The notes under the pieces are model-generated. The model ran no database searches. It was not told the origin of the DNA and saw nothing but the letters and a program-made list of their open reading frames with translations. A DNA stretch of 64,000 bases, from positions 1,791 to 65,790 of the forward strand of contig CAWGIE010000045.1 of the NCBI GenBank assembly GCA_963822585.1, read 5' to 3'. Origin of the DNA: an uncultured bacterium. GTDB lineage: Bacteria; Auribacterota; Erginobacteria; Erginobacterales; Erginobacteraceae. The position numbers were made by a program, and so were the translations under genes. Position 1 is the stretch's first letter; every line of letters starts with the position of its first letter. This document shows positions 5,775 to 63,574 of the stretch, piece after piece.

Positions 5775-5868
5775 GTGGAGTAATGGAGTGATGGAGTGAT
5801 GGGATGCCGGCTCCGGCCTGAGGCGCGTAACCCAACACTCCACTACTCCCATACTCCATCACTCCCAT
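5775..5868. repeat. Fold-back repeat family A (TGGAGTRA tandem units plus reverse-complement arm); other copies at ~3793-3824, 6561-6658, 47388-47471, 58392-58569
   Basis: GTGGAGTAATGGAGTGATGGAGTGATGG ... CCAACACTCCACTACTCCCATACTCCATCACTCC. Confidence 0.85.
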
Positions 5869-5910
5869 TCATCCGCCCGAGGCGGAGCCGAGGGCTAAGG
5901 AGCAATCACC

Positions 5911-6519
5911 ATGGAAATAGTCGTGGCCAGTCATAATCAGGGCAAGGTGGCGGAATTAAGAAAGCTGCTGGAGCACCTTCCGGTCAAGATTTATTCGCTG
6001 GATGATTTCGAGATCATCCCGGAGGTGAAGGAGGACGGGGAGACCTACGCCGAGAACGCGCTTAAGAAAGCCCGCGCCGTCTACCAGGCGACGGGGAAGA
6101 TATCCCTGGCTGACGACTCCGGGCTGGAGGTGGACGCCCTGCAGGGCGAGCCCGGAGTGCGCTCGGCCCGGTACGGGGGTGAGGAACTCACCGATCACGA
6201 GAGGAACATGAAGCTCCTGGAGCGGATGGCGGACGTCCGGGATGAAGCCCGGGGCGCCACCTTCCAGTGCTGTCTGGCCATCATCGGGCCGAAAGGGATG
6301 GAGAAAATCGTCACCGGTTCCTGCCGGGGCACCATCACCCGCGCGCCCCAGGGGGGGAGCGGCTTCGGGTATGACCCGATCTTCCTCCCCTGTGAGTATA
6401 AGAACACCTTCGCGGAACTCTCCCCGGAGATCAAGAACCGGATCAGCCACCGCGCCCGGGCCCTGGAAAAGGCCGCCCTCTTTCTGGACGGGTACATCTA
6501 TTCCGAGACGCACCGGTGA
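5911..6519 (+). CDS. rdgB: Non-canonical purine NTP pyrophosphatase (RdgB/Ham1)
   Basis: ASHNQGK, ENALKKA, ADDSGL, PGVRSAR, GFGYDPIF, KNRISHR. Confidence 0.96.
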   Translation: MEIVVASHNQGKVAELRKLLEHLPVKIYSLDDFEIIPEVKEDGETYAENALKKARAVYQATGKISLADDSGLEVDALQGEPGVRSARYGGEELTDHERNMKLLERMADVRDEARGATFQCCLAIIGPKGMEKIVTGSCRGTITRAPQGGSGFGYDPIFLPCEYKNTFAELSPEIKNRISHRARALEKAALFLDGYIYSETHR

Positions 6520-6729
6520 GGGGGGGGAATTCCTTGCAAGACCCTTCGTGTGATTGTTCGGGAGTACTGGAGTAATGGAGTGTTGGAGTGATGGGCCCCC
6601 GGCTCACCGCCATTCCATCATTCCATCACTCCACCACTCCATCATTCCATCACTCCATGTTTGATTGACAGCCCGTGTTACTTTGTCTGAAACCATGTAT
6701 TTTCTGAGTCAATGCTCTGACACTCTGCC

Positions 6730-7893
6730 ATGATATTCCTCCTCGCTTTCCTGATGAACGTCTCCACCGGGCTGCTGGTCCTGGGCAACCCGCTCCTGGC
6801 TCTCCGGCTCTTCCATGCCGACGCCTTCATGCTCGGTCTCCTGGGGACGGTTCCTTCCATTATTTACGCCCTGGTCTGCCTCGGCAGCGGTGTCTGGGCC
6901 GATCGGATCGGGCCCCGGAGGATGATCGTTATCGCCTGTTTGAGCCTGGTCCTGGTCTACTGCTCGATCTTCCTGGTCGCCCGGTTTCGCCATCTTCTCC
7001 TCCTGGCCGCTTTCTGGGGGATCGGGGGGGCGCTCTTCTGGCCGGCGATGATCCGCTGGCTGGGAGAGGACGAACGCGAGGACCGGCTGCGGCAGCGGAT
7101 CGGGAGCTATAACATCGCCCTGATCGGGGGGATCATGCTCGGCCCGCCTCTGGCCGGAGCGGTCTTCCCGATCAACTACCGTTATCCGTTCCTGCTGGCG
7201 GCGTTTCTGGTCGGCGTGATTCTGGCCATACTGGCGATCGTGCGGCGGAAAAGGGTCCGCCTGCCGGAATCGCCGCCCGGGCTGCCGGAAGAACCGGGTG
7301 AACAAGCAGTCCCCGGTTTCATCTACGTCGGCTGGGCGGCCAACTTCGCGGCCTGGTTCGCGATCGGCGCCTGCCAGTCTCTCTTCCCGAAACTGGCCCT
7401 CTCTCTCCCGGTCCCGATCGGCGACCGGATGCTGGGGATCCTGATCGCCCTCATCCCCGCCGGCGAGATCACGGTCTTCGCCTTCCTCCGGAAACTCCGC
7501 CACTGGCATTATCGGTACCGCTACCTCCTCTTCTTCCAGGCGCTGGGGATGGGGGGACTCCTCGTCCTGGCGCTGAACAGCACCCCCGGACTTTTCATCC
7601 CCGGGTTCCTGGCGATCGGTTTCGCGGGGGGGATGACCTATTTTTCCAGCATCTACTACAGCGTGCACCGCCAGGAAGGGAAGGGGAGAAAAAGCGGCCT
7701 CCACGAGTCATTCCTGGGGTTCGGCGTCGCTTTGGGTCCCCTCTGCGGAGGCCTGGCGGCCGGCCGGCTGGGGCTGCGCGCTCCCTATCTGCTCGCCGCC
7801 GGCGTTTTCGCGGCCAGCATCGCCGTTCAGTATGTTCTGCTCCGCTGTTTCACCGCGGGACGTTCTCTCCCGGGAAATCATCAAGGAGGGTAA
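6730..7893 (+). CDS. MFS transporter
   Basis: About 12 hydrophobic segments; motif A GVWADRIGPRR. Confidence 0.85.
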   Translation: MIFLLAFLMNVSTGLLVLGNPLLALRLFHADAFMLGLLGTVPSIIYALVCLGSGVWADRIGPRRMIVIACLSLVLVYCSIFLVARFRHLLLLAAFWGIGGALFWPAMIRWLGEDEREDRLRQRIGSYNIALIGGIMLGPPLAGAVFPINYRYPFLLAAFLVGVILAILAIVRRKRVRLPESPPGLPEEPGEQAVPGFIYVGWAANFAAWFAIGACQSLFPKLALSLPVPIGDRMLGILIALIPAGEITVFAFLRKLRHWHYRYRYLLFFQALGMGGLLVLALNSTPGLFIPGFLAIGFAGGMTYFSSIYYSVHRQEGKGRKSGLHESFLGFGVALGPLCGGLAAGRLGLRAPYLLAAGVFAASIAVQYVLLRCFTAGRSLPGNHQGG

Positions 7894-7894
7894 G

Positions 7895-9571
7895 ATGAAG
7901 ACAGACCGATACAACATCGTCGGGGCGATATTCGCCGCCTGCGCCGGAACGGTGCTCTTCGCGGGTGTACCGCCCGCACCGGCCTGGAACTGGACCATGG
8001 ATTATCAGGCCGCCGACGTTCTCTGGGCGACGGCCGCCTCTGATCCCCTTCATGCCTGGGCGGGGGGGAATTCCGGTCTAATCTATGCCTACGAGAATGA
8101 ATCCTGGAGTCTCCAGACCAGGATCGTGGGTCGAACGATCCGCTCGCTCTATGCTGTTGACGAAAACCACGTCTGGGCGGGGACGGACAGCGGGAATATC
8201 TTCTTCTTCAACGGTGTTGTCTGGTCGTTTCAGACCCGGCTCAGCGGAGGGGTCGGATCGATAAACAGCCTCGCCGGCACCGGCTCGGTCAATGTCTGGG
8301 CCGCTTCCGCCGCTCATAAAATCTACTATTACAACGGCTCCTTCTGGTCATTGAGCACGGATGTGAACATCAACGACCTTTATGCCGTCTCCGCTCTCGA
8401 CACGGCGCATGTCTGGGTCGGGGGACAGGACGGGATGGTTTATTTCTTCGATGGCGCCGGATGGACGGTGCAGACCGATCTCGGCACCGCCAGCGTTTAT
8501 GAAATCCTTTCCTTCCCTGACGATCTTGTTCTGGCGGTAACCGGCGGGGGCCCGGGTGCCGTTTTCATGAGCCGCGACGGCGGCGCCGCTTGGTACCGCG
8601 ATGTCGGCTCGGCGTACTCGATCAACACCGCGGCGGCGGTCGCCTCCTCCAAAATATGGCTTGGCCTTTCCAACGGTAAGATTTTCGGTCTCGACGGCCA
8701 GGCTCTCTGGGCAGAGGAGACCGATGTGAAACAATACATCAATGACATTGATAACCTGGGCCGGACCGGGGCCCTGATGGTCGATTACTGGGGAAGAATT
8801 TTCCGGGCCGACCCGAATACGATGCCGGAATTGAACGTCTCTTCCGGGGATTTCGACGGGAACGGTGTCTCCGATTTCGCCCTCTTCCGGCCTGTCCCCG
8901 GGCTCTGGGCGGTTCGGGGGGTGACCCGGGCCTACTTCGGACAATACGGCGACACCCCCGTCCCCGGAGACTATGACGGCGCCGGCCGGGCCCAGATCGC
9001 GGTATTTCGCGACGCCGCCGGTCTCTGGGCCGTCCGGGGCGGCGGCCGGGTCTATTTCGGGAGAGAATTCGATAACCCGGTGCCGGGCGACTACGACGGG
9101 GACGGGACCGCCGAACCGGCGATCTTCCGCGCCTCTCCAGGACTGTGGTCGGTGAAAGGAGTGAGCCGCCTCTACTTCGGGACCTGGGGCGACATCCCCG
9201 TCCCCGCCGACTATAACGGCGACGGCGTCGCCGCCCCGGCTATTTTCCGCCGCTCATCCGGTCTCTGGGCGGTGAGGGGGATCACCCGGCGCTATTTCGG
9301 CTCCGCGGCCGACGTGCCCCTCCCGGCCGATTACGACGGTGACGGCACCGCCGAAATCGGGATCTTCCGCCCCCGGTCCGGCATGTGGGCGGTGGCCGGC
9401 CTGACCCGGTTTTACCATGGCCGGAGAGGGGACTTCGCCGTCAACGGGAATTTTTCCGGCCCCGGTCCCGCCGGCGCCGGGATCTTCCGCCCCGCGACCG
9501 GCCTCTGGTCGATCCGGAGCGGCCCCCGGGTCTACTTCGGCTCCCGTTCCGACGTCCCCGTCACCCGGTAG
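7895..9571 (+). CDS. Secreted protein with an N-terminal beta-propeller-like region and C-terminal FG-GAP/VCBS-like repeats
   Basis: RBS GGAGG; signal peptide; repeated VWAG...G.I...G..WS.QT blades; about six GDYDGDG.A..AIFR...GLW.VRG..R.YFG repeats. Confidence 0.85.
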   Translation: MKTDRYNIVGAIFAACAGTVLFAGVPPAPAWNWTMDYQAADVLWATAASDPLHAWAGGNSGLIYAYENESWSLQTRIVGRTIRSLYAVDENHVWAGTDSGNIFFFNGVVWSFQTRLSGGVGSINSLAGTGSVNVWAASAAHKIYYYNGSFWSLSTDVNINDLYAVSALDTAHVWVGGQDGMVYFFDGAGWTVQTDLGTASVYEILSFPDDLVLAVTGGGPGAVFMSRDGGAAWYRDVGSAYSINTAAAVASSKIWLGLSNGKIFGLDGQALWAEETDVKQYINDIDNLGRTGALMVDYWGRIFRADPNTMPELNVSSGDFDGNGVSDFALFRPVPGLWAVRGVTRAYFGQYGDTPVPGDYDGAGRAQIAVFRDAAGLWAVRGGGRVYFGREFDNPVPGDYDGDGTAEPAIFRASPGLWSVKGVSRLYFGTWGDIPVPADYNGDGVAAPAIFRRSSGLWAVRGITRRYFGSAADVPLPADYDGDGTAEIGIFRPRSGMWAVAGLTRFYHGRRGDFAVNGNFSGPGPAGAGIFRPATGLWSIRSGPRVYFGSRSDVPVTR

Positions 9572-9725: not shown

Positions 9726-11087
9726 ATGAAAACTGCTTTTTTCTGCCAGGAGTGCGGGTACAAGTCGTTGAAGTGGCTGGGGAAATGCCCCGGCTGCGGG
9801 GGCTGGAACACCCTGGTCGAAGAGCAGGTCGAGGCCGAGCAGAAAGGGACCCGTTCCCACCCCCGCTGGGAGAGGCAGAAGCCGGTCCCGATCAGCGAGA
9901 TCAAGCCCCGGGCCGATATCCGGACCCGGACCGGGATCAAGGAGCTTGACCGGATACTGGGCGGGGGGGTCGTGGCCGGCTCACTGGTCCTGGTCGGCGG
10001 CGAGCCGGGGATCGGCAAGTCGACGATCCTCCTCCAGGCCAGCAACGCGCTTTCCGCCGCCGAGAAGACGGTCCTTTACGTGAGCGGGGAAGAGTCGGTC
10101 GAACAGTCGAAGCTCCGGGCCGAACGCTTGGGCGCCTCCTCGCCGGGGCTCTACCTGGTCTCCGAGACCAACCTCGACCTGATCCAGGAATACATCAGGG
10201 AAGTCCAACCTTCTCTGGTCGTGATCGATTCCATCCAAACCGTCTTCCACCCGGAGGTAACCTCGGCCCCGGGGAGCATCTCCCAGGTCCGGGAGTGCGC
10301 CGCCCGCCTCCTGGTCACGGCCAAGTCGGAGGGGTTCGCCATCTTCCTGGTCGGCCACGTGACCAAAACGGGGGAGATCGCCGGTCCCCGGGTGCTCGAG
10401 CACATGGTGGACACCGTCCTTTACTTCGAGGGCGACCGGCATCACGCCTACCGGATCCTGCGGGCGGTCAAAAACCGCTTCGGCTCCACCGACGAGATCG
10501 GGATTTTCCAGATGTCGGAGCGGGGGCTGCAGGAGGTGAAGAACCCCTCCGAGATCTTCCTCTCCCAGAGGGAGCCGGGGCTGACCGGTTCGGTGGTCGT
10601 CCCCTGTCTGGAAGGGAAGCGGCCGATCCTGGTCGAGATCCAGGCCCTGACCGCCTGCACCGGCCTTGCCATCCCCCGCCGGCGGGCGACCGGGCTGGAC
10701 GTGAACCGGGTCTTGATCCTGATGGCGGTCCTGGAGCGGCGGGCGGGCCTCCGTCTTCAGGACAAGGACGTCTTCGTCAACGTGGTGGGGGGGGTGAAGA
10801 TTTCCGAGCCGGCGGCCGACCTGGGGGTAGTGGCGGCGGTAGCCTCCAACGTGAAGAACGCCCCCATCCCGGCGGAGACGGTGATCATGGGCGAGGTCGG
10901 GCTGGGGGGAGAGGTTCGGGCCGTCCGGCAGATCGAGCAGCGGTTGAAGGAAGCGGCCAAACTCGGCTTCCGGCGGGCGATCATCCCCGCCGCCGGGGCG
11001 GACGAGATCAAGAAGATCAAGGGCTTGGAGATCGTCCCCGTCCGGAAGATCCGGGAAGCATTGAATGCCGCATTGCAAAAACAGTAA
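9726..11087 (+). CDS. radA: DNA repair protein RadA/Sms
   Basis: CQECG...WLGKCPGC zinc finger, GEPGIGKST, KNRFG, Lon-like C-terminus. Confidence 0.98.
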   Translation: MKTAFFCQECGYKSLKWLGKCPGCGGWNTLVEEQVEAEQKGTRSHPRWERQKPVPISEIKPRADIRTRTGIKELDRILGGGVVAGSLVLVGGEPGIGKSTILLQASNALSAAEKTVLYVSGEESVEQSKLRAERLGASSPGLYLVSETNLDLIQEYIREVQPSLVVIDSIQTVFHPEVTSAPGSISQVRECAARLLVTAKSEGFAIFLVGHVTKTGEIAGPRVLEHMVDTVLYFEGDRHHAYRILRAVKNRFGSTDEIGIFQMSERGLQEVKNPSEIFLSQREPGLTGSVVVPCLEGKRPILVEIQALTACTGLAIPRRRATGLDVNRVLILMAVLERRAGLRLQDKDVFVNVVGGVKISEPAADLGVVAAVASNVKNAPIPAETVIMGEVGLGGEVRAVRQIEQRLKEAAKLGFRRAIIPAAGADEIKKIKGLEIVPVRKIREALNAALQKQ

Positions 11088-11176
11088 TCGGTAATCAGTA
11101 ATCGGTAATCAGTCCGTTGCTGGCCAAGATCACTGATCACCGATTACCGATCACTGATTACTGATCGCCGATCACC
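11082..11176. repeat. Fold-back repeat family D (CAGTAAT/GATTACT 7-mers); second copy at 12729-12845
   Basis: CAGTAATCGGTAATCAGTAATCGGTAATCAGT ... GATCACTGATCACCGATTACCGATCACTGATTACTG. Confidence 0.85.
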
Positions 11177-11217
11177 AACAGTAATTCGCATATCGTTTTT
11201 TCGTTTAAGTGAGCATC

Positions 11218-12198: not shown

Positions 12199-12199
12199 T

Positions 12200-12682: not shown

Positions 12683-12857
12683 AAGAGCTTCCGTTGCCGG
12701 AAGTTCAGACCTGTTATGTATATAGATGAGTAATCAGTGATCGGTTATCAGTAACCAGTCGGCCCACCCGGATCTCTCCTGGAAAGCCCGCTCACCGATT
12801 ACTGATTACTGATCACTGATCACTGATTACTGATTACTGATTACCAGGACCCTAGTA

Positions 12858-14351: not shown

Positions 14352-14409
14352 TGGACCACGTTTAGATGATAAGGAAGAAGGTTACTGGATTCAGAATGCT
14401 TCATTTTCC

Positions 14410-14435
14410 CTTCGTGATCTTCGTGTCCTTCGTGG
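14410..14435. repeat. Repeat family B (ACCACGAAG-type 9-mers and reverse complement); others at ~4731-4758, 27800-28041, 28890-28917, 35906-35931, 49733-49816, 55455-55552
   Basis: CTTCGTGATCTTCGTGTCCTTCGTGGT, and ACCACGAAGGACACGAAGTTCACGAAG on the other arm. Confidence 0.85.
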
Positions 14436-15164: not shown

Positions 15165-15274
15165 GCAAGCCTTGCCGCAGGCAAGGCGATCCTACATTTA
15201 CTACATCTACTACAAGTCCTGAACGGAGTGAAGGACGATCCTACATAAATTCGCGAGCGCAGCGAACTAATTTA
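15165..15274 (+). repeat. ~210-bp element, copy 2 (3' half only)
   Basis: GCAAGCCTTGCC-GCA-GGCAAGGCGATCCTACA...GGAGTGAAGGACGATCCTACATAAATT...CTAATTTA. Confidence 0.9.
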
Positions 15275-22597: not shown

Positions 22598-23887
22598 ATG
22601 AATGTTACTATTATCGGGACGGGTTATGTCGGCCTGGTAACCGGGGCCACTCTGGCGGAACTGGGTAACCGGGTTATCTGTGTCGACAACAATGAAGAGA
22701 AGATCGCCATGCTGAACCAGGACGGGATCCCCATTTACGAACCCGGTCTGAAGGAGATGGTGCGTTCGGCCCGGCAAGCCGGGAGAATGTCGTTTATAAC
22801 TTCGATCGGAGAGGGAGTACGGGCTTCCGATATCATTTTTATCGCCGTCAGCACCCCCCCAAAGGAAGATGGTTCGGCGGATTTGAGCGCGGTCGCGGCG
22901 GTGGCGCGGGAAGTGGCCGAGAACCTGAACGGTTACAAGGTGATTGTGGACAAGAGCACCGTCCCCGTGAAGACCGGGGAAAAGGTCGCCGAGACGATAA
23001 AGCGCTACAGCAAGGGCAGCGGTGATTTCGATGTCGTTTCCAACCCTGAATTTCTCCGTGAGGGATCGGCCATCTATGATACCTTCCACCCGGATCGGAT
23101 CGTTATCGGGACCTCGAGCAAGCGCGCGGCCGATCTCCTGATCGAGCTCTACAAACCTCTGGCCGCGCCGGTCATCGTTACCGATATCAACAGCGCCGAG
23201 ATTATCAAGCACGCCGCCAATTCCTTTTTGGCCACCAAGATATCGTTCGCCAATGCCCTGGCTCATATCTGCGAGGCGTCGGGCGCGAACGTGGAAGAAG
23301 TGACCCGGGGCGTGGGACTGGACAACCGGGTCGGGAGCAAGTTTCTCAACGCGGGCGTCGGCTACGGCGGGTCCTGTTTCCCGAAAGACGTCTCGGCCTT
23401 TATCGCCATCGCCGAAGAACTGGGTTATGATTTCCGTCTGCTGAAAGAGGTGGAGCGGATAAACGAGGAGCAGGCCGAGTACTTCTTCAACAAGATCAAG
23501 GAAACCCTCTGGGTGCTCGAGGGCAAGTTGATCGGCGTGCTGGGACTGGCCTTCAAGCCCGATACCGACGACATGAGAAATGCGCCCTCGGTGAAGATCA
23601 TTCAGCGTTTGCTGGCGGAAGGAGCGAAGATCAAGGCCTTCGACCCCAAGTCGATGGAGAAGGCGAAAGAATACCTCCCCGGCATTGAGTACTGCGGCAA
23701 TCCCTATCAGGTTGCCGAGCAAGCCGAAGCCCTGATTATCGTTACCGAGTGGAATGAATTCAAGGAAATGGATCTGAAGAAGATCAAGAGCCTTCTCCAT
23801 CAGCCGATCATCATTGACGGCCGCAACATCTACGACCCCGAGAAAATGGAGAGTTTGGGATTTATTTACAAGAGCGTGGGCAGGTAA
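22598..23887 (+). CDS. ugd: UDP-glucose/GDP-mannose dehydrogenase family protein
   Basis: GTGYVGL, KSTVP, SNPEFLREG, GYGGSCFPKD, LGLAFKPDTDD, DGRN. Confidence 0.93.
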   Translation: MNVTIIGTGYVGLVTGATLAELGNRVICVDNNEEKIAMLNQDGIPIYEPGLKEMVRSARQAGRMSFITSIGEGVRASDIIFIAVSTPPKEDGSADLSAVAAVAREVAENLNGYKVIVDKSTVPVKTGEKVAETIKRYSKGSGDFDVVSNPEFLREGSAIYDTFHPDRIVIGTSSKRAADLLIELYKPLAAPVIVTDINSAEIIKHAANSFLATKISFANALAHICEASGANVEEVTRGVGLDNRVGSKFLNAGVGYGGSCFPKDVSAFIAIAEELGYDFRLLKEVERINEEQAEYFFNKIKETLWVLEGKLIGVLGLAFKPDTDDMRNAPSVKIIQRLLAEGAKIKAFDPKSMEKAKEYLPGIEYCGNPYQVAEQAEALIIVTEWNEFKEMDLKKIKSLLHQPIIIDGRNIYDPEKMESLGFIYKSVGR

Positions 23888-23889
23888 AA

Positions 23890-23982
23890 CGCAGAGCGCA
23901 GAGGGCATAGAGCATAGAGCACGTGGTTCCAGCGGGGCCGATTTTCCCCCGGCGCTCTGCGCTATGCCCTCTGCGCTTTGCA
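23890..23982. repeat. Fold-back repeat family E (GCAGAGC/GCATAGA 7-mers); second copy at 63277-63359
   Basis: CGCAGAGCGCAGAGGGCATAGAGCATAGAGC ... GCTCTGCGCTATGCCCTCTGCGC. Confidence 0.85.
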
Positions 23983-24045
23983 TTTTATGATATCTCCGGT
24001 AATCCGGGAAAATTTTCCATTTGTTGAGAGACGCATAATTTTGTC

Positions 24046-24980
24046 GTGAAGATATTAGTCACAGGCGGGGCCGGGTTCATCGGGTCGCATATTGTCAGGG
24101 CCCTGGTCGAGGGAGGTGACCGGGTCTGGGTGATCGACGATTACTCGACCGGCCGGGCGGAAAACCTTGACGACATCCGGTCCCGGATCACCGTGGTCGA
24201 GGGGGATATTCGGGATGAATCGGTTGCCGGTCCGGTCCTGCGGGAAGTCGAGGGGGTCTTTCACCAGGCGGCGCTGCCCTCGGTTCCCCGCTCATTCGCC
24301 GATCCGGTCGGGACCACCTCCGTCAATGCCGCCGGCACGCTGAACCTGCTCGAAGCAGCCCGAAGGAGCCGGATCCGCCTTTTTGTCTTCGCCTCCTCGT
24401 CGTCGGTATACGGGGATGTCGGGGGCGGCGCCAAGCGGGAAGACCTGCCGCCCTGTCCGCTCTCTCCCTACGCGGCCAGCAAGCTGGCCGGGGAGAATTA
24501 CTGCCGGCTCTACTGGAAGCTGTACGGCTTGCCCGCGATCAGCCTTCGCTATTTCAATGTCTTCGGTCCCGGCCAGGATCCGGCCTCGCAGTACGCCGCC
24601 GTTCTTCCCCTGTTTATCACGGCCATTCTCCGGGGCGAGTCCCCGGTTATTTACGGCGACGGCCGGCAAAGCCGGGACTTTACTTATGTCGATAACGTGG
24701 TCCGGGCCAACCTGGACTGTCTTTCCGCTCCCCCGGAAGCCAGGGGGAGCTCTTCAACGTCGCCTGCGGCGAGGAGACGGGCCTCCTGACCGTCCTGGAT
24801 ATTTTGCGCGACGCCTCGGGAGCATCGGTCTCCCCGGTTTTTGAAGCGCCCCGGCTTGGAGATGTCCGTCATTCGCTGGCCGATATCGGGAAGGCCCGTG
24901 AAGTCCTGGGTTACCGTCCCCAGGTATCATTTTCCGAGGGGTTGAAAAGAACGTTTAAATATTTTAAAAACAAGGAATGA
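24046..24980 (+). pseudogene. NAD-dependent epimerase (WbpP/VI-polysaccharide-like) with an apparent 1-nt frameshift in G5 at 24743-24747
   Basis: GGAGFIG, HQAALPSVPRS, YAASK, RYFNVFGP, RDFTYVDNVV; adding one G restores GELFNVACG...GDVRHSLADIGKAREVLGY...EGLKRT ending at TGA 24978-24980. Confidence 0.85.
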
Positions 24981-24989
24981 GGATACTGA

Positions 24990-25200
24990 GAATGATGAAA
25001 TCCGAATGACGAATGACGAAAGAATGACGAAATACGAATGACGAATAACGAAAAAATGACGAAATTCGAATGACGAATGACGAAAGAATGACGAAATCCG
25101 AATGACGAATGACGAAAGAATGACTAAATCCGAATGACGAATGATGAAAAAATGACGAAATCCGAATGACGAATGACGAAAGAATGACGAAATCCGAATG
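24990..25200 (+). repeat. Minisatellite of ~6.6 x 32-bp units (family C), with inverted arm at 25277-25328; relatives at 50841-50912 and 56780-56972
   Basis: Unit GAATGACGAAATCCGAATGACGAATGACGAAA starts at 24990, 25022, 25054, 25086, 25118, 25150, 25182. Confidence 0.95.
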
Positions 25201-25397
25201 TTAAAGCGGTGCCTGCGGGAGTTATTCGCGCCTTCGTGCGGCTTGAGAAAAGGCCAAGGTTGAGTGATGAGGGTTGGTCATTCGTCATTAGGGTTTCTTT
25301 CGGATTTCGTCATTCGGGTTTCGTCATTAAATCAATTTATAATGCCCCAACAGTATCAACTACTTTCAAATAGCAATTCATTCCGAGGAGATAAACC

Positions 25398-26532: not shown

Positions 26533-26695
26533 GAAATTCCAAATAACAAATCCCAAATTACAAACAAATCTCAAATTCCAATGACCAAAATAACAAACGA
26601 CTGGTCCATATCTAGAGGTGTAGGCTGTCCGTTTTGGTCATTGGAATTTTGAATTTGTGATTTATTTGTTATTTGGTGCTTGGGATTTGGGATTT
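26533..26695. repeat. Fold-back repeat family F (AAATCCC/AAATTCC 7-mers); others at 52369-52616 and 60378-60613
   Basis: GAAATTCCAAATAACAAATCCCAAATTACAAACAAAT ... TTGGAATTTTGAATTTGTGATTTATTTGTTATTTGGTGCTTGGGATTTGGGATTT. Confidence 0.85.
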
Positions 26696-27783: not shown

Positions 27784-28083
27784 TTCCTCATAAAATCAAA
27801 CCACGAAGGACACGAAGTTCACGAAGAAGATTTTAAAAGAGTAATTTGTATCCTTCGTGATTTCCAGGGGATGTTAAAATTCGGCGTATCTCAAAATATG
27901 GCACCAACGTAAACTCCGCTAAAATGCCTCTCTGAATCCCCGGTCTACGGGATTGTTATCTGTTGGCATTATCATCAGCTACTCCGCAATTATTCCTTCG
28001 TGATTTTCTTGATCTTCGTGTTCTTCGTGTCCTTCGTGGTGATATAATTTTGTCGGCGTTCAGGTAATAAGGATCGTATTGTC

Positions 28084-28851: not shown

Positions 28852-28936
28852 TACATACACAGAAGAATTAGGCTGCTCTCTCCCGGTATCTTCGTGTACT
28901 TCGTGTTCTTCGTGGTGTACAATAACCCGGTTTTTT

Positions 28937-31187: not shown

Positions 31188-31260
31188 GAAAAATATATTG
31201 TTATTCGATAATTTTTATCCTTTGATCATTATATCAGGGAATGCCATGATTTTTCCCTAA

Positions 31261-31422
31261 GTACACCGGTTCATAAATACGGTGATATTCGTCCGCAGAT
31301 GCATCCCGAGCTGCTGCGTTGCTCGTCGGTCAAATACCACAAGGGTATTCTCCCTCCTCGCGCCTGGCATCTCGGGCGCCTCTACGCCCTCGATATAACA
31401 CCGTATTTATGAACAGGTGTAC
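31261..31422. mobile_element. 162-bp MITE-like element with ~30-bp imperfect terminal inverted repeats
   Basis: GTACACCGGTTCATAAATACGGTG...CACCGTATTTATGAACAGGTGTAC; TAA on both flanks; no ORF of note. Confidence 0.75.
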
Positions 31423-31593
31423 TAAGCCATATTTGGATGGTGAAAGTTCCCGGAGTTCCCCGCATCAATCTGTTCTTTTCAGCCCGAACTGTCAGTGTTA
31501 TCATAACCGGGAGATCAATAATAAAGTCCACTCGATGTTTGACGTTGAACAGGCTGCCCGGGGGTGGGGTTGGATGTTCAAACTATTAAATCG

Positions 31594-36231: not shown

Positions 36232-36284
36232 CTTATTACCAGTGCCAGCAGAATAATATATCTAAAACAAGGAGGAAAAATAAA

Positions 36285-41162: not shown

Positions 41163-41303
41163 GTGAAAAGGACCGAACATCCAACAGTGAACGCCGAACT
41201 TCGAACGCCCCTGGCTGGGGCATGAAAAAAAGCCATCGATAGTCCGATCGGTCCGATCCGACCGATCCGTCCGATCAGTGATCAACAAAGGCCGAGTAGG
41301 GAA

Positions 41304-47327: not shown

Positions 47328-47542
47328 TGACGGAGCGGTTGACGGGGAGCCGTGCCGGGGGTAAACGACGAAGAGGTTCGGTGCGTTATGGAGTAATGGA
47401 GTGGTGGAGTAATGGGGTGAGGGGGGCCGGGAGACTTCCCACACTCCATTATTCCATCATTCCAGTACTCCCGGTTACTGGTTCTCCGATAGTGGCAAGA
47501 TCAACAGATCGGGCGCATATGTATAGCGGCCAGGCGCCCTCC

Positions 47543-49716: not shown

Positions 49717-49881
49717 AGCAATGAAGTAATTAACCACGAAGGACACGAGGAACACGAAGGACTGTTGAGAAAATAAGTATGTTTTGATTGATTAAAATCT
49801 TCGTGAACTTCGTGTCCAGGGTAGATTTGTCGTAACTGCTTTGTAGTGCTCAGGAATTTCAAGAAAAGATATATCCAATAA

Positions 49882-50090: not shown

Positions 50091-50846
50091 ATGAAGATCA
50101 CGCTTATCGGCACCGGCGTTTCCAGCCCCTCGCTTCGGCGCTCCTCACCCGGCCTGGTGATGGAAGCGGGAGAGGAGAAGCTCCTCTTCGACTGCGGTCC
50201 GGATATCCTCCGGGGGATGCTCGCGGCCGGTTTCCGGCACCGGGACATTGACCGGATCCTGGTTAGCCATTTTCATCCCGATCATACCCTGGGTCTGGGC
50301 CATTATCTCTTCGCCTCCCGGTATGACCTGGAGCCGCGCCGCCGGGATCTTTTGATTGCCGGCCCCCCCGGTATGGAAGAACTGATGGAGCGTTTCAACT
50401 CTCTCTATCCCCGGTGGCTGGAAGGGAAGGGATACCGGGTCCTGGTTCATGAGATTGACGACCACCGCTGGTCCGGCCGGGGCTGGCGGATGCGGACGGC
50501 CCCGGTCCGGCACAACCCCGAGAGTATCGCCTACCGGGTAGAGGACGGCCGGGGAATATCGGTTGTCTATTCCGGAGATACCGGTTACTGCGATTCCCTG
50601 GTCAGCCTGTCCCGGTCCGCCGACCTCCTGATCTGCGAATGTTCCTTCCCGGACGGGCGGGGCGGGTCGATGCACCTCGGGCCCAAAGAGGTCGGGATCG
50701 TCGCCTGGCGGGCAAAGGTGAAGAAGGTCCTCTTAACCCATATGTACTCTCTTTGCGATGAGATAGACGTGGTCAGGGAATGCAAAAAGGAGTTCCCCGG
50801 AGAAGTGCTCCGTGGCGAGGACGGGATGAAAATAAATGTCGAATGA
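50091..50846 (+). CDS. MBL-fold metallo-hydrolase (RNase Z/AtsA-like)
   Basis: IGTG, FDCG, SHFHPDH, VRH, YSGDT, ECS, H, LTH. Confidence 0.88.
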   Translation: MKITLIGTGVSSPSLRRSSPGLVMEAGEEKLLFDCGPDILRGMLAAGFRHRDIDRILVSHFHPDHTLGLGHYLFASRYDLEPRRRDLLIAGPPGMEELMERFNSLYPRWLEGKGYRVLVHEIDDHRWSGRGWRMRTAPVRHNPESIAYRVEDGRGISVVYSGDTGYCDSLVSLSRSADLLICECSFPDGRGGSMHLGPKEVGIVAWRAKVKKVLLTHMYSLCDEIDVVRECKKEFPGEVLRGEDGMKINVE

Positions 50847-50995
50847 CGAAATCCGAATGACGAAACCCGAAGAAATAACGAAATTCGAATGACGAAATGC
50901 GAGGCAATGACGAATACCCCGGTTGAAATGTGCGGGGGAAATGAAATCATGTGCACTGGTGCTATTCCGGTGAAAACATAACCGGAGAGATACCC

Positions 50996-52396
50996 ATGGG
51001 AGATACACTATTTTTCCCCGAAGGGGGAAAAATACATTTTGTCGGCATCGGAGGCGTGGGAATGAGCGCGCTGGCCCAGCTCGCCCGCTGGCAGGGACGG
51101 GCGGTGAGCGGGTCCGACCGCTTCTTCGACCGGGGCGAGGCGCTCGACCTTCGCCGATGCCTGGAAGGGGAGGGGATCGTTATCTTTCCCCAGGACGGAT
51201 CGGGGGTGGAAAACGCCGCCGAAGCGGTGAGCTCGGCGGCGGTGGAGGCGGAGATACCCGATCTCCGGGCGGCGGTGAAGGCCGGGGTTCCGGTAACCGG
51301 CCGGGGCGAGTATCTTCTGCGTCTTTCCCGGGGACGGAAATCACTGGCGGTGGCCGGAACGAACGGCAAGTCCACCACATCCGCCCTCCTCAGCTGGATC
51401 TTGGCCGAAAACGGGTACGACCCCACCTTTGTCATCGGGGCTTCTCTGGCGAAGAAAGGGAGGGGGTGGGGGAATGCCCGGTCGGGGGAATCGGAGTGGT
51501 TCTGCTTCGAGGCGGATGAAAGCGACGGCGTCCTGGAACGGTATCTCCCCACCTATGGCGTGATCACCAACATCTCGCCGGATCACTTCGAGATCGAACG
51601 CCTGAGGGATATCTTCACCCGCTTCGCCGGGAACTGCCGGAAAGAGGTCGTGCTCAACGCCGACTGCCCGGAAAGCCGGCTGATCCGGACCGGGGTCGTT
51701 CCGTCGGTCACCTTCTCAATTCATTCTCCTTCCGATTTTCGCGCTCGGGAGATCGAGACCGGCCCCGGGAAATCATCTTTCACGGTCCGGGGTGAACGGT
51801 TTGATCTCCCCCTCCCGGGGATCCATAATGTCTATAACACTCTGGCCGCGCTCGCGGCTGTTTCCCTGGCCGGCCTGGCCCCGGCCCGCGCCGCGGCGGC
51901 AGTGGCTTCCTTTCCGGGGGTCAGGAGAAGGATGGAAATTGTTTATTCGTCGGCTGACCTGGTTGTGATTGATGATTACTCCCACAACCCGGCCAAGATC
52001 GCCGCCGCCCTGGAAGCGGCCCGGCTGTACGGCCTCCCGGTGACCGCGGTTTATCAGCCCCACGGTTTCGCCCCCCTGCGCCGGCTCCATCGCGAGCTGG
52101 CCGCCGCCTTTTCCCGAGGGCTTCGCTCCGGCGACCGGCTGTTGCTCCTCCCCGTCTATTATCCGGGCGGGACGGTGGAGACCGGCTTCGGCTCCGCCGA
52201 CCTGGCCGCCGAAATTACCGGGCCGGCGGCAGTGGGGGTTCAAGCGGACCAGGAGGGTGTTCTCTCCTCTCTCGGCCGGCCGGGCCGGGGGCTATTCCTG
52301 GTCATGGGCGCCCGCGACCCCGGGTTGAGCGCTCTCGCCCGCCGAATTTCCCGGCTGCTCGCCGGGGAAAAATCACAAATCCCAAATCCTAAATAA
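50996..52396 (+). CDS. MurC/Mpl-family ligase
   Basis: HFVGIGGVGMS.LA, SGSD, AGTNGKSTT, EADESDG, DH, HN, GVRRR, DDYSHNP, YQPH. Confidence 0.88.
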   Translation: MGDTLFFPEGGKIHFVGIGGVGMSALAQLARWQGRAVSGSDRFFDRGEALDLRRCLEGEGIVIFPQDGSGVENAAEAVSSAAVEAEIPDLRAAVKAGVPVTGRGEYLLRLSRGRKSLAVAGTNGKSTTSALLSWILAENGYDPTFVIGASLAKKGRGWGNARSGESEWFCFEADESDGVLERYLPTYGVITNISPDHFEIERLRDIFTRFAGNCRKEVVLNADCPESRLIRTGVVPSVTFSIHSPSDFRAREIETGPGKSSFTVRGERFDLPLPGIHNVYNTLAALAAVSLAGLAPARAAAAVASFPGVRRRMEIVYSSADLVVIDDYSHNPAKIAAALEAARLYGLPVTAVYQPHGFAPLRRLHRELAAAFSRGLRSGDRLLLLPVYYPGGTVETGFGSADLAAEITGPAAVGVQADQEGVLSSLGRPGRGLFLVMGARDPGLSALARRISRLLAGEKSQIPNPK

Positions 52397-52563
52397 CAAA
52401 CAAATCCCAAATCACAAATTCAAAATCACAAACTCACTCAGCACTTACAACCCCGAGCAAATTACGCCGGAGGTATTGACCTGCTACTTCGGATTTCGTC
52501 ATTAGTAGCGCCGCAGGCGCTAATTTATTTTGATTATTGTAATTTGTAATTTGTTTGTTATTT

Positions 52564-54028: not shown

Positions 54029-54133
54029 TGTGTATCGCCAGGTCATTGCGGGGCTCGCAATGACGATCTCGGATTAGCGTAATCTATATTTTGCTCTCCT
54101 GATTAATAAACGATTTCAGGTGGTTACAGAGGT

Positions 54134-55412: not shown

Positions 55413-55596
55413 TACTATTTCGGAATTTCGAAAACGTAGAAAAAACAGATAATCACCACGAAGAACACGAAGTACACGAAGAAAGATAGGAAAAATATCA
55501 TGCTTATTTTATTCTCCCCGATTTCCTTCGTGACCTTCGTGTCCTTCGTGGTTAAAAGATGCGCCGCAGGCGCTCATTAATAACGGGAGGGATGAT

Positions 55597-56742: not shown

Positions 56743-57014
56743 GGTGACGAGGTTTGCGCCGCTTTTAAGTGGAATAACGATAAATGACTAAATCCGAATG
56801 TCGAATGTCGAAAGAATGACAAAGCACCTCCGCCCAAGCGGCTTCGGCGCTCTCGCGAAGGCGGATGACGAAATGTGCTCCGGTCGGCCGAAGCGTGCCG
56901 CCGAAAGGGAGATGGGGAATTCAGTCATTTGACAGTGGGATTTCATTCGGATTTCGTCATTCGGATTTGGTCATTTAGAATCCGGGATAAATTCCCCGAA
57001 TTCTTGAATTCATC

Positions 57015-58361: not shown

Positions 58362-58594
58362 TGGTAATGTACTGTTATACCGGTCAGAGAGGGAATAATG
58401 GAGTGCTGGAGTGTTGGAGTATTGGAGTAATGGAAGCCGGGCCCCCACCATTTCATTACTCCATCACTCCAGGTTACTAAGTATCGGACACGATAACTTT
58501 TTCGGGTTTACTATATATCGGGTAATTACGCACTTCAACACTCCACTACTCCATCATTCCATTACTCCAGCTTCATTATCCCAACCATGCCTGT

Positions 58595-60367: not shown

Positions 60368-60678
60368 TATGCTTGCAAAAATCCTAAATCCTAATTTCTA
60401 AATCCTAAATAAATGCAAAATTAAAAATCCAAATGCACAAAATGATCACCCCTTGGGCAGTGCAAAGGGAACAGGTCTATCTATAATATCTGAGACGGCT
60501 TTTCCTCCCTCCAATTCGTTTCGAAGAATCCGCCTTGATGTGCTGCCGGTGGAGGTTTCGGTCATTTGGATTTGAATATTGTTTAGGATTTAGATATTAG
60601 GATTTAGGATTTGTTCCTTGAAGATTCTCTATACCGAAACGTGAGAACTTTCATCCAGAAAAATATAATATATGACTG

Positions 60679-63278
60679 ATGAGTAAGCTCACACCCATGA
60701 TGAAGCAGTACCGGGCGCTGAAAGCGTCGGTCAGGGACGCGATCCTTCTCTTCCGGCTCGGTGATTTTTACGAGATGTTCGGCGAAGACGCGAAGATCGC
60801 GGCCCCCATCCTGGAGATCGCCCTCACCGCCCGCCACACCACCCCCATGTGCGGGATACCTCATCATGCCGCCTCCGGTTATATCGCCCGACTGCTCAAA
60901 GCGGGTAAGAAAGTCGCCGTCTGCGAACAGGTGGAAGACCCCCGACAGGCCAAAGGCATCGTCAAGCGCGACATCATCCGGATCATCACCCCGGGCACGG
61001 CGGTCGAGGAGGAACTATTGAAGAGCTCCGCCTCCAATTACCTGGCGGCGGTCCATCAGATGGGCCAGGTCTACGGGTTCGCCTATATCGAGCTCTCCAC
61101 CGGCGAGTTCAAGGCGGCCGAACTGTCATCCCGGGACGCCCTCCGGAACGAACTGGAACGGGTCAGCCCCAGCGAATGCCTGGTCTCGGGCACTCTGGCC
61201 CCCCGGCTGAAGGACCTGCTTTCCTTTCTGCCGGAGACGGTCCTCACCCCTCTCGAGGATTGGTTTTTCGATTACGACCTGGCCTACGCCGCCCTGAAAA
61301 AGCAGTTCGGAACGGCCAGCCTGGACGGATTCGGCTGCCAGCAGATGATACCCGGGATCGGGGCCGCCGGGGCGATCATCGGCTACGTCGGCGAGAATCT
61401 GCGATCATCGCTCTCCCATGTTCATTCCCTCTCCGTCTTTTCCCCGGCCGCGTTCATGGTGATGGACGCCGTCTCCCAGCGCAACCTGGAGATCATCGAG
61501 CCCCTGCGGGGGGGCGACCGTTCCGCCACCCTGATCGGGGTCCTCGATCGGACGGTGACTTCAATGGGGAGCCGGACCCTGCGGACCTGGTTGCTCCAGC
61601 CCCTGCTCGATCCGAAAGAGATCGAGAAAAGGCTTGATGGCGTCGAGGAACTGACGTCCCGCCGGGACGCCCTGGCGGATATCCGCCAGGGCCTGAAAGG
61701 GATCCGGGATATCGGGAGGATCATGGGGCGGGTCGCCTGCGGACGGACCAACGCCCGCGAGCTGGCCGGGCTTCGGGAATCGCTTTCTTCCCTCCCCCCC
61801 TCCGGGAGGCGCTCGGGGTTCTGGAGTCCTCCCTCCCGCGGGCGGCGGCGGCGGATCTCGAGGTCACACCGGAGCTGGGCGCCCTCTTGGAAAAATCCCT
61901 GGTTGATAATCCTCCCCTCGCCCTCAAGGAGGGGGGGATGATCAGGAGCGGTTACCACCCGCCCCTCGATGAACTGCACGCGCTGGCCCGGGACGGGAAA
62001 AACTGGATCAGCCGTTTCCAGGAAGAGGAGATCGCCCGCACCGGGATCAAGTCGCTGAAGGTCCGGCATAACAAGGTCTTCGGATATTACATCGAAGTCA
62101 CCCGCCCGAACCTTCCTCAGGTCCCGGAGAACTACCTGCCCAAGCAGACCCTGGTCAACGCGGAGCGGTTCATAACAGAAGAGCTGAAGAACTATGAGAA
62201 CAAGGTCCTGGGGGCCCAGGAAAAAGCGGCGGCACTGGAATACCGGCTCTTCGAGGAGATCAGGGAGGAGGTGAAAAAAGAAACCACCGCGGTCCAGCGC
62301 TGCGCCCGGGCGGTGGGGGTGATCGACGCGCTCTCCGCTCTGGCGGAGGTTGCCGTCGGCAATCGGTATGTCCGGCCGTCCGTCGATTCCTCCGACCGAC
62401 TGGAGATCGTGAATGGACGGCACCCGGTGATCGAGCGGATACTGGTGGATGAGCGCTTCGTGGGGAACGACACTTTCATGGACGGGGAAGAGAACCAGAT
62501 CGCCATCATTACCGGCCCCAATATGGCGGGCAAATCCACCTATATCCGGCAGGTTGCCCTGATCGTGCTCATGGCCCAGGTGGGAAGCTTCGTCCCCGCC
62601 GACTCGGCCCGGATCGGGGTGGCGGACCGGATATTTACCCGGGTGGGCGCTTCCGACGAACTGGCCCGGGGCCAGTCCACCTTCATGGTGGAGATGATCG
62701 AGACGGCGAATATTCTCCACCACGCGACCCCCCGCAGCCTGGTCGTTCTCGATGAGATCGGCCGGGGTACCAGCACTTTTGACGGAATCAGTATCGCCTG
62801 GGCGGTGGCCGAGTATCTTCACGATCACCCGGCCTCCCGGGCCCGGACCCTCTTCGCTACCCATTATCACGAGCTGACCGAACTGGAGCTGACGCTCCGG
62901 GGAGTGAAAAACTACAACGTGGCGGTGAGGGAATGGAACGACGAAGTGATCTTCCTGAGAAAAGTGCTTCGCGGCGGCACCGACAAGAGCTACGGGATCC
63001 AGGTGGCCCGGCTGGCCGGTCTGCCCCGCGCGGTCATTGAACGGGCCCGGATCATCCTGACCAACCTGGAGGATGAATCTCTCTCCGCTGACGGGCTGCC
63101 GAAGTTCGCCGGCTCCCCCGGGGGCAGGGATCCGGGCGTCGGCCGGCAGCTCTATCTTTTCGAGACGTCGACTCACCCGGTCCTGGCCGAGCTGAAAAAT
63201 ATCAATCTCGACCACCTGACGCCTTTCGAAGCCATGCAGCGCTTGCGGTCGATGAAAGACCGGGTGTTGGAAGATTGA
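60679..63278 (+). pseudogene. mutS: DNA mismatch repair protein MutS with an apparent 1-nt frameshift in C7 at 61794-61800
   Basis: N half TPMMKQY..GDFYE.F; C half ITGPNMAGKST, STFMVEM, DEIGRGT, ATHYHEL, SYGIQVA; adding one C joins the two frames. Confidence 0.93.
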
Positions 63279-63574
63279 GCGCAGAGCGTAAAGAGCATAG
63301 CCACCGGGGGAGCAACGCTATGTTCTATGCCCTATGCGCTATGCTCTTTGCCCTCTGCGTGACGCTTTTATTTAGATGTTACCCTCGATATAATATGGTA
63401 TTATTACTAAGTTAAAGATATTAATGACGTGTTGCTTCGGGATTTTTTCCGAAATCCGTCGGGATAATGATATCTCTGAATAAATGAATCGGGACAATAA
63501 CTGTCAAAATACTAAACAATAGAGTGTCCCCACTACAGCTTGGCGACGAATAGTTTTTTTACTTTAGGCACTTC

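Follow-up and report, generated by a model that had tools for sequence, protein, structure and literature searches.

Inverted arrays of short tandem words between housekeeping genes as probable arms of small selfish cassettes in an uncultured bacterium

A 64,000-nt stretch of contig CAWGIE010000045.1 (assembly GCA_963822585.1), from an uncultured bacterium of the Erginobacteraceae (phylum Auribacterota), carries a run of ordinary housekeeping genes, nearly all on the + strand, and, in the gaps between them, many arrays of tandem 7-9-nt words. This whole stretch is hereafter called the window (G000:C45:1791-65790, G000 being the label for the source genome). Its genes include rph, rdgB, radA, ispD, ispF, cysS, tmk, holB, metG, priA, dnaK, groES/EL and clpB, together with sugar-nucleotide enzymes, a nagZ-like gene, two Mur ligases, a miaB/rimO-like gene and mutS. 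Many of the arrays form fold-backs, in which a left arm of repeated words is followed by a spacer and an inverted right arm; others stand alone. Elsewhere in the genome, arms of the same words enclose a single small gene, encoding either a four-helix-bundle protein (TIGR02436/PF05635) or a GxxExxY protein (TIGR04256/PF13366), and the arrays are probably the terminal arms of small selfish cassettes lodged between genes, most of them remnants that have no gene. The source assembly comprises 4.51 Mb in 48 contigs (89% complete, 7.8% contamination, 56% G+C), and comparisons within its small phylum drew on 79 species-level genomes.

Arrays were called with Tandem Repeats Finder (TRF) at periods of 7-9 nt, using score cut-offs of >=30 and >=40 in the window. 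From 92 TRF rows, 53 of period 7-9 reached the lower cut-off and 25 the higher; 20 first-order Markov resamples yielded 1-9 and 0-1 respectively, so that chance is not the explanation. When the best ungapped stem in each of 43 window gaps was set against 30 shuffles, it exceeded all of them in 28 gaps, and in 16 of those 28 the arms were periodic, one weakly. A sequence-only reading of the window had described six fold-back families, A to F, and these were recovered by TRF, inverted-repeat and stem searches at every position it had named, as were its four 'minor types'; the flanks are, as it stated, co-oriented housekeeping genes (rph, rdgB, radA, ispD, ispF, cysS, tmk, holB, metG, dnaK, groEL, clpB, mur ligases and mutS). 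Its statement that repeats fill nearly every gap was too strong: 16 fold-backs and at least 14 lone arms occupy about 26 of the 43 gaps of >=30 nt (~60%). Arrays of families with >=5 genome copies account for 23 of these gaps, and three more gaps missed by that count also hold arrays (24981-25397, 4755-5012 and 35928-36284). Further arrays precede coordinate 5775, at 1910-1933, 2218-2247, 2936-2959, 3794-3825, 3861-3899 and 4734-4758. The fold-backs are as follows, in window coordinates read along the forward strand:

5776-5868: family A fold-back between rph and rdgB, with TGGAGTrA x3.4, a 27-nt spacer and an inverted arm; four family relatives have no array here
6561-6658: family A fold-back between rdgB and a major facilitator superfamily (MFS) gene, arms 85% complementary; in G001, of the same genus, the A fold-back at this gap is shorter
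11082-11176: family D fold-back of CAGTAAT/CGGTAAT words, overlapping the radA stop and preceding ispD; D-type words occupy this gap in G001, G005 and G007
12726-12844: family D fold-back between ispF and cysS; CAGTAAG words occupy this gap in G001
23885-23987: family E fold-back of GCAGAGC/GCATAGA words, 86% complementary, overlapping the stop of a UDP-glucose dehydrogenase gene
24989-25328: family C fold-back (GAATGAC), its left arm a 32-nt higher-order array x6.6 at 24989-25200 and its right arm at 25274-25328
26534-26688: F-like fold-back of AAATyCC words, with an inner stem containing ATGACCAAAA that resembles the start of the F four-helix-bundle gene
27800-28040: family B fold-back (CACGAAGnn), three units per arm, 185-nt spacer
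47388-47471: family A fold-back in a convergent gap
52370-52563: F-like fold-back of AAATCAC/AAATCCC words, its left arm overlapping the 3' end of a Mur ligase open reading frame (ORF)
55455-55552: family B fold-back with arms of three units around a spacer of 12-44 nt
56781-56977: family C fold-back of weaker periodicity
58392-58569: family A fold-back
60379-60612: family F fold-back (AAATCCy), 94% complementary, with the same arms as the F four-helix-bundle cassette at G000:C23:32759-33225
63280-63359: family E fold-back after mutS

The lone arms and arrays are these:

1910-1933 and 2218-2247: two AAGGGAT-word arrays facing outward, 284 nt apart, either halves of two elements or one rearranged element; at G000:C26:112681-113232 a four-helix-bundle gene lies between arrays of this word
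2936-2959: lone arm, CGAATTACG x2.7; this word also stands to the left of a GxxExxY gene at G000:C30:19453
3794-3825 and 3861-3899: lone A arm, then an AACGTTC array x5.6; AACGTTC encloses a four-helix-bundle gene in the relative G004 (locus L138)
4734-4758: lone B arm of left-arm type
4956-4988: lone arm of AAGTGCC-type 9-nt words, read by eye; an AAGTGCC-type word forms the arms of locus L009
12116-12144: lone array, CTACATCTC x2.6
14409-14434: lone B arm of right-arm type, CCTTCGTGA x2.9, absent from this gap in G001
15192-15214: lone array, CTACATCTA x2.6, in the tmk-holB gap
28890-28914: lone B arm of right-arm type
35907-35931: lone B arm of left-arm type
41242-41276: array of GTCCGATCC x3.9; a similar word flanks a weak four-helix-bundle match at G000:C19:185899
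49735-49759: lone B arm of left-arm type
50835-50914: lone C array

The arrays extend across the genome: TRF returned 4,695 rows for the whole genome, 2,432 of them of period 7-9, and the merged arrays number 2,615 and cover 91,203 nt, or 2.0% of the sequence. Greedy clustering of array units (single linkage had chained all units into three clusters), with GC-rich 9-mers set aside as coding noise, gave 30 word families comprising 1,568 arrays, at least 70% of them intergenic by the custom gene calls. An independent regular-expression scan counted forward arrays, reverse arrays and short fold-backs, respectively, as 143, 150 and 86 for family A; 144, 139 and 96 for B; 44, 55 and 18 for C; 98, 95 and 66 for D; 12, 9 and 5 for E; and 52, 47 and 32 for F, with forward and reverse arrays in balance. 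Tandem 7-nt units in intergenic DNA match what have been called short tandemly repeated repetitive (STRR) sequences or long simple-sequence repeats, a descriptive class without explanatory force.

The first line of evidence on what these arrays are comes from the genes found between them. Inverted array pairs 150-1,200 nt apart enclosed 15 ORFs, which were scanned against protein families: seven encode four-helix-bundle proteins (TIGR02436 at E 1e-16 to 1e-30), three encode GxxExxY proteins (one truncated), one is a response regulator that stands between two elements, and four have no match. No transposase family was matched among the 15, nor was HEPN cargo, which the sequence-only reading had listed beside the other two classes; its statement that similar arms flank four-helix-bundle and GxxExxY genes was borne out, such cassettes being present both in the source genome, between the very arms seen in the window, and in its relatives. 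One candidate for a new kind of cargo, a 144-aa ORF at locus L011, proved to be a resident gene for a secreted protein, flanked on each side by a separate fold-back without a gene. Locus L009 may hold a decayed four-helix-bundle gene, judging from a 44-aa remnant that lacks an NCBIfam match and aligns at an hhalign E of 0.0011 and a probability of 20%; the ORFs of L013 (93 aa) and L014 (75 aa) match no family.

Searching the whole genome for the two families gave 13 TIGR02436 matches, 11 of them solid, and 8 TIGR04256 matches representing 7 genes, one broken. Matched inverted arrays of a single word enclose 8 of the 11 solid TIGR02436 genes and 4 of the 7 TIGR04256 genes (12/18 in total); of the remainder, two have one arm and four have none or unmatched arrays. 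Window families A, B, D and F, together with the AAGGGAT, CGAATTACG and GTCCGATCC types, are among the enclosing words; in relatives, four-helix-bundle genes are also found between arms of C and of AACGTTC. There is mostly one cargo gene per word family, set against a far larger number of arrays:

word A: 261 arrays, one four-helix-bundle gene
word B: 301 arrays, one GxxExxY gene
word D: 163 arrays, two four-helix-bundle genes
word F: 96 arrays, one four-helix-bundle gene
word CACnAAGA: 117 arrays, two GxxExxY genes

Four-helix-bundle proteins associated with different words share 18-27% identity, and the two D proteins 71%. Where both neighbouring genes agree in strand, the cargo gene follows them in 16 of 17 cases (p = 2.7e-4).

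A full cassette is 0.45-0.65 kb long: inverted arrays of one 7-9-nt word, specific to the lineage, enclose a single small gene, and the anatomy differs between the two cargo classes. Arms linked to GxxExxY genes have three units of 8-9 nt and measure 24-27 nt, with a tight spread; those linked to four-helix-bundle genes have 4.4-5.8 units, mostly of 7 nt, and are 28-40 nt long and in occasional cases expanded. The D four-helix-bundle protein matches PDB entries 2rld and 2gsc, each of five chains, and the 2gsc protein, Xcc0516, appears in the reference list of Zhang and Ye 2013 as an assembly of five four-helix bundles (PMC3936711); this class has no evident catalytic activity. The GxxExxY proteins, of ~130 residues, have E42, D82, E92 and K94 invariant in 14/14 sequences, and their predicted structure (pLDDT, the predicted local distance difference test, 91.9) retrieves only PD-(D/E)XK nucleases in the top Foldseek rows (Cas4, lambda exonuclease, Hjc), by matches that are weak, none reaching E <= 0.001 and the best standing at 6.5e-3 with a template-modelling (TM) score of 0.46. 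Conservation of the E, D and ExK residues, together with the alpha-beta core fold, marks this cargo as a predicted PD-(D/E)XK nuclease.

A second line of evidence lies in the relation between full cassettes and gene-less copies, the latter outnumbering the former by roughly 100 to 1. The sequence-only reading had taken spacers to be unique, which is not always so: across the genome, 54 of 216 fold-back spacers have a homologous counterpart at a different locus. With 45 copies, a gene-less F element of ~190 nt forms the largest group; the sequence inside its left arm resembles the first ~40 nt of the F cassette, including its ATG, and its right end matches the 3' end of the cassette. A strict BLAST threshold is passed by 11 copies, and F is the one family in which derivation from a gene-bearing parent by internal deletion was observed. 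Two CACnAAGA GxxExxY cassettes at different loci, one of them with a stop, share 94.7% identity across 414 nt, and the similarity breaks off precisely at the outer edges of the arms. Elements may also be nested or stacked: a C element lies within a CACnAAGA element, and at G000:C35:209302-209708 and 216776-217260 left arms with their adjoining sequence are repeated in 7-9 tandem copies at a 48-70-nt period, beside a broken GxxExxY cassette and with a family C fold-back nested between the stack and the right arms. A CRISPR array was considered for these stacks and ruled out, given that the stretches between the arms repeat too. From these copies it follows that the arms are the ends of the element, that cassettes lose their gene by internal deletion, and that the gene-less forms multiply in the manner of MITEs (miniature transposable elements with inverted repeats).

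Comparison of orthologous gaps adds a time scale. Thirteen gaps with an array in at least one of six genomes were followed, the relatives being G001 of the same genus, G005, G006 and G007 of the same family and G013 of the same order, and the gene order from rph to degT is conserved in all five. Between rph and rdgB, the A fold-back of the source is missing from G001 and the three family relatives, whose gap is 64-76 nt long vs 154 nt in the source. The rdgB/MFS gap has A in the source and G001, a fold-back of ATCGCT hexamers in G005 and G007, nothing in G006 and CAGTAAT x14.6 in G013. The tmk/holB gap holds CTACATCTA in the source and AATGGAGT x4.6 in G001, and is merely 15-16 nt long in G005-G007; the ispF/cysS gap has CAGTAAT-type words in the source and CAGTAAG-type words, in both arms and around an unrelated spacer, in G001. 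Five or six gaps keep the same word within the genus, most differ at the family level, and all differ in G013. Stable repeats at orthologous gaps across distant relatives, which would have counted against the sequence-only reading, were not found: relatives have the same word, another or none, and over the span of genera elements are gained, lost and exchanged at these gaps. The sister genus has 6-nt words (ATCGCT, CGATAC) in fold-backs at rdgB/MFS and ispF/cysS (G005, G007, G002), and the design is accordingly not limited to units of 7-9 nt.

At a greater evolutionary distance, gene and arms have spread jointly across phyla. With a single D protein as query, a species-level genome collection yielded 487 confirmed related stretches, and the best 80 of these, at 58-88% identity, come from at least 10 phyla, their lineages including the PVC group (Planctomycetes, Verrucomicrobia, Chlamydiae), Bacteroidota, Chloroflexota, Ignavibacteria, Desulfobacterales, Gemmatimonadota, Calditrichia, anammox bacteria and further groups. 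Arrays of period 6-10 lie next to 75 of these 80, on both sides in 56, and 33 of 61 left arms are built of one of four rGTrAyC-type words (AATCAGT, AATCGGT, AACTGAT, ACTGATC). Two D-type relatives of 68-72% identity, in metagenome-assembled genomes of the Rickettsiales (L039) and of Ca. Anammoxibacter (L057), likewise have heptamer arrays alongside.

Word and protein also change together. Among relatives of the F protein within the phylum, those of >=60% identity have AAATCCT-like words and those of <=50% have other words, including GAATGAC (the word of family C; G003, G009), AACGTTC (G004) and AAATCCC (G023). Relatives of the B GxxExxY protein form a finer series: the word is CACGAAG at 100, 81, 71 and 61% identity, CATGAAG at 68%, CACGGAG at 66%, and CACAGAG, CGCAGAG or CGCAAAG at 50-55%. 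In this series the period is 9 nt in most loci and 8 in three, each arm has about three units and up to four, and one word recurs in every unit of both arms of each element. Exact B arms number 226 in the source, 164 in G003, which has the 81% orthologue, 55 in G041 and 12 in G001; 60 of the 79 phylum genomes have none, and a reversed-pattern control has none anywhere.

Such a close tie might instead mean that each small protein is a factor acting in trans, which binds its own word and regulates the hundreds of genes that adjoin arrays, the arrays being operator-like sites rather than relics. This domesticated network would make sense of a single cargo gene, in most families, against tens to hundreds of arrays, of a word and protein that change in step, and of unit numbers that fit the protein class (4.4-5.8 for four-helix-bundle proteins, whose solved relatives have five chains, and 3 for GxxExxY); a post-transcriptional regulator was proposed for the TAACTGA repeats of other bacteria by MacGregor 2015 (PMC4679880). 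We nonetheless consider it unlikely, given that the adjoining genes are ordinary housekeeping genes with no common theme, that array-rich families have no cognate gene in this genome and G041 has arms without the gene, that orthologous genes in relatives stand beside another word or none, and that a conserved nuclease active site would be odd in a regulator.

Whether selection has kept the word or the stem can be asked of the arms themselves. The right arm had been described as the reverse complement of the left, which is true of the conserved word and untrue of the variable positions, these being unmirrored. Of 77 B fold-backs whose cores are exact, 25 have a mirrored outer linker (24.4 expected) and 7 a mirrored inner one (11.7 expected); mirroring is seen in 3 of 55 A linkers (17.5% expected), 20 of 136 D units (23.4% expected) and 4 of 27 CACnAAGA bases (27% expected), and in the tests of A, D and CACnAAGA the null mirroring equalled or exceeded that observed in 997-998 of 1,000 re-deals. 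Among 263 stems oriented by the strand of the flanking gene (median stem 27 nt), G:U and A:C mismatches are about equal (151 vs 161, p = 0.61), and hence there is no sign of selection on a sense RNA helix. Taken together, the unmirrored positions and the missing G:U excess indicate that the conserved feature is the repeated word, not a perfect stem; the variable positions are free, and perhaps actively kept unlike, between the arms. Such a pattern would fit sites read by a protein, and perhaps also avoidance of long perfect palindromes; it fits the upkeep of a stem less well. An apparent mirrored order of units, with 135 of 173 stems scoring above stems of permuted units, was set aside, since those stems had been chosen for best pairing and are thereby biased; the register tests show no mirroring.

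These results bear directly on the notion that the arrays are RNA hairpins of service to the host, akin to repetitive extragenic palindromic (REP) sequences, which would stop exonucleases, end transcription or set processing sites, with the small genes as occasional passengers. Their placement would suit such a role: arrays occur in 678 of 1,761 co-oriented gaps and, among convergent ones, in 103 of 261, whereas divergent gaps, although longer, are the poorest with 59 of 289 (odds ratio 0.41, p = 5.6e-10; counts approximate, the custom gene caller being crude), the left arms start at or just past stop codons, and several gaps retain their word within the genus. For all seven full cassettes (7/7) the predicted sense-RNA fold has 25-55 terminal pairs, although this is expected of any inverted repeat. 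A helix maintained for its pairing sits poorly with 151 G:U against 161 A:C mismatches on the sense strand and with variable positions that are unmirrored and tend below chance; nor would one job in one genome call for thirty different words, words that are moreover swapped or lost at orthologous gaps, travel with a cargo protein across phyla and, in the 45-copy F element, belong to a deletion derivative of a cassette. Host-serving hairpins are for these reasons decidedly unlikely. Plain microsatellites, arising in place by replication slippage without movement or any link to small genes, are scarcely credible: unit number does vary among relatives and arrays can lengthen (14.6 units in G013, the 32-nt higher-order array at 24989-25200, the 407-nt array on C35), and a heptamer excess was ascribed to slippage in work cited, as far as its available text goes, by PMC4692102, but slippage makes no inverted partners at a set distance, and it does not account for one word recurring at over 100 loci, for the conserved interior of an element in 45 copies, for a given protein being surrounded by a given word in other phyla too, or for an excess in the window of 53 arrays vs 1-9 in resamples.

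Small selfish cassettes, most of them reduced to their arms, remain the probable explanation, and we call them mobile because of their copy number, their turnover and their spread across phyla. The sequence-only reading had proposed empty or non-autonomous forms of small mobile cassettes, and its proposal gains from the cargo-bearing copies, the deletion derivative and the turnover of gaps; a mobility enzyme, a target duplication and a fresh insertion were not found. As to mechanism, the word would, with middling confidence, be a cis site acted on by the protein lineage of the cassette itself: a change of word affects every unit in both arms and keeps pace with the protein, whereas the linkers drift freely. 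Lying on the sense strand of host operons, cassettes would ride on host transcription, as their orientation suggests; in the transcript, the arms could then pair into a stem of ~27 bp, like that of a ribosomal intervening sequence (IVS) and open to cutting by RNase III, a step suggested by orientation, by likeness to the IVS of Coxiella and by the predicted folds. For the GxxExxY class, movement might proceed by cutting at the arms or by resolution of an extruded cruciform, followed by copying into sites with the same word.

A number of observations weigh against this reading. No target-site duplication is visible at the single pair of copies compared (the two CACnAAGA cassettes), and no insertion between near-identical sequences was caught in six public DNA runs, which carry 7-14% of the sampled words on low-depth contigs of 151-450 nt; no RNA run was listed for the stretch. 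None of the nine matches to the Y1 transposase (PF01797) in the genome is flanked by family arrays (0/9), nor is any of the four reverse-transcriptase matches (0/4). Six of the 18 cargo genes lack matched arms by TRF, G041 has its 55 exact B arms with no GxxExxY match at E <= 1e-10, and big families have no cargo gene in the source genome, itself 89% complete (AACGTTC with 131 arrays, C with 42, E with 10). The five or six gaps that keep their word in the same-genus genome imply that many elements have been static for long, and co-change of word and protein would also be expected from joint inheritance with homogenisation by copying. The stem does not have the look of selection, which weakens the RNase III step, and the gene calls behind the gap statistics come from a crude custom caller. 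Apparent 'joints' and loose ends at arms in the public runs derive from copies of these words elsewhere in the genome or in different organisms.

A bolder extension can be offered tentatively. Both proteins may be modular readers of short words, a four-helix-bundle pentamer reading ~5 heptamers, one per subunit, and a GxxExxY protein reading three 7-nt cores placed 9 nt apart, with a few residues sufficing to re-tune specificity as the word drifts (CACGAAG, CATGAAG, CACAGAG, CGCAGAG, CGCAAAG). The STRR, TAACTGA and GGGAATC repeats and the 23S IVS could then be traces of one word-addressed selfish family. If this possibility were realised, the proteins would amount to a natural set of small re-targetable nucleic-acid binders and cutters.

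Other features of the window stand apart from the word arrays. The mutS gene is split into two overlapping ORFs in different frames, 60679-61941 (MutS domains I-III) and 61887-63278 (domains III-V), through a frameshift or an assembly error, and an NAD-dependent epimerase ORF (window 24046-24980) stops at 24789 after 247 aa, with its C-terminal part in a separate 58-aa ORF at 24804-24980, being either interrupted or mis-assembled. A 120-nt tandem repeat x2.4 (70% matches) at 9083-9373 lies inside a 579-aa ORF (7832-9571) that has no Pfam match and looks like a repeat protein. At 31257-31426, in the divergent gap upstream of priA, there is a non-periodic inverted repeat with 32-nt arms, 91% complementary and 106 nt apart, which is not of the tandem-word kind; at 35439-35480 a perfect 20-nt palindrome with a 2-nt loop, terminator-like, closes a convergent gap. 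A second dispersed type of hairpin, with ends GTCATTGCGAG ... CTCGCAATGAC, occurs at window 54042-54064, at G000:C38:28239-28513 and in the gaps radA/ispD of G007 and ispD/ispF of G006, thus recurring in the source genome and in relatives, at times inside the spacer of a word fold-back.

For decades, short repeats of 7-9 bases between genes have been on record from cyanobacteria, Xanthomonas, Beggiatoa and others without an accepted explanation, and ORF-bearing inserts in 23S genes without a known origin. If the cassette reading is true, the two would be faces of one widespread class of tiny cassettes, and two very large families of 'function unknown' (TIGR02436/PF05635 and TIGR04256/PF13366) would gain a job, that of acting on the arrays around their own gene. 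The source genome recommends itself as a test system, with ~30 word families, several of which retain one intact master gene, stepwise variants of the word in relatives and a gene-less derivative in 45 copies. It is also worth noting that relics which make up 2% of a genome, and ~60% of window gaps, may be mistaken in annotation for regulatory sites, CRISPR-like arrays or terminators. What is new here about the arms themselves is that their variable positions are unmirrored and that they show no G:U excess.

A literature search, outside which subscription journals and bioRxiv supplements lay, found no published description that links word arrays to the two gene families. The closest repeats on record are those of Rehm et al. 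2015, who, in the available text, describe intergenic tandem heptamers in Xanthomonas (GGGAATC) and Nostoc (GGGGAyT), with 70-75 convergent inverted pairs in Xanthomonas and a species-variable number of units, and read them as formers of G-quadruplexes, generally without association with mobile elements (PMC4692102). The present genome has ~30 words where those have one per genome, and a link to four-helix-bundle genes which that text does not report, 'four-helix' and 'S23' having 0 occurrences in it (PMC4692102). MacGregor 2015 described TAACTGA direct repeats in Beggiatoaceae, Cyanobacteria and Bacteroidetes, patchy across phyla, with 2-6 units just upstream of start codons, as the accessible part of that paper has it (PMC4679880). 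TAACTGA is one base from the right-arm word of family D, and of the 61 D-type relatives with a left arm, 6 have AACTGAT-type words beside them; unlike the arrays here, the TAACTGA repeats are described as direct, with a single inverted case, and as regulator sites, and the same part of the paper has 0 occurrences of S23, four-helix or intervening sequences (PMC4679880). Zhang and Ye 2013 recorded 23S_rRNA_IVP genes lodged within cas operons (PMC3936711), a placement in keeping with insertion at the junctions of operons.

Among mobile elements, the likeness to MITEs extends to terminal inverted repeats, many copies, a conserved interior and, in the F family, internal deletion of a gene-bearing parent; the differences are that the parent has no known transposase, that no target-site duplication is seen at the one pair of copies compared and that the terminal repeats are arrays of short words with unmirrored variable positions. 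REP sequences and their paired form, REPINs, are short intergenic palindromes present in hundreds of copies and depleted in divergent gaps, with approximately one master gene per family, the REP-associated tyrosine transposase (RAYT) gene, flanked by the same repeats. In population structure this is the nearest parallel, the arrays being likewise dispersed, intergenic, palindromic, multi-copy and rare in divergent gaps; unlike REPINs, they flank none of the Y1 matches, have arms of tandem words rather than one palindrome and fall into ~30 families in one genome.

In design, the nearest match is the ORF-bearing IVS of 23S ribosomal RNA. That of Coxiella burnetii, in helix 45, is 428 nt long, with a 28-bp terminal stem, an S23p ORF in the loop and cleavage by RNase III, and the source, in its available part, calls it selfish and thought to be horizontally acquired (PMC4990558). 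TRF found no arrays in the 23S gene of the source genome (G000:C8:83489-86543, 3,055 nt). As a separate observation, the ribosomal RNA operon that contains it (G000:C8:81133-86802) comprises a 16S gene of 1,598 nt, two tRNAs, the 23S gene and a 5S gene, and the 23S gene is ~130 nt longer than the Rfam model, with small expansions in the part of the alignment shown. The elements described here differ from the 23S IVS in lying between protein-coding genes, a location that places them outside that group, and also in having tandem words for arms, a second cargo class (GxxExxY) with the same design and a majority of gene-less copies. Set beside the IVS as the available text describes it, they share a similar size, terminal inverted repeats or a terminal stem, a single S23p (PF05635/TIGR02436) ORF and, probably, carriage on a host transcript.

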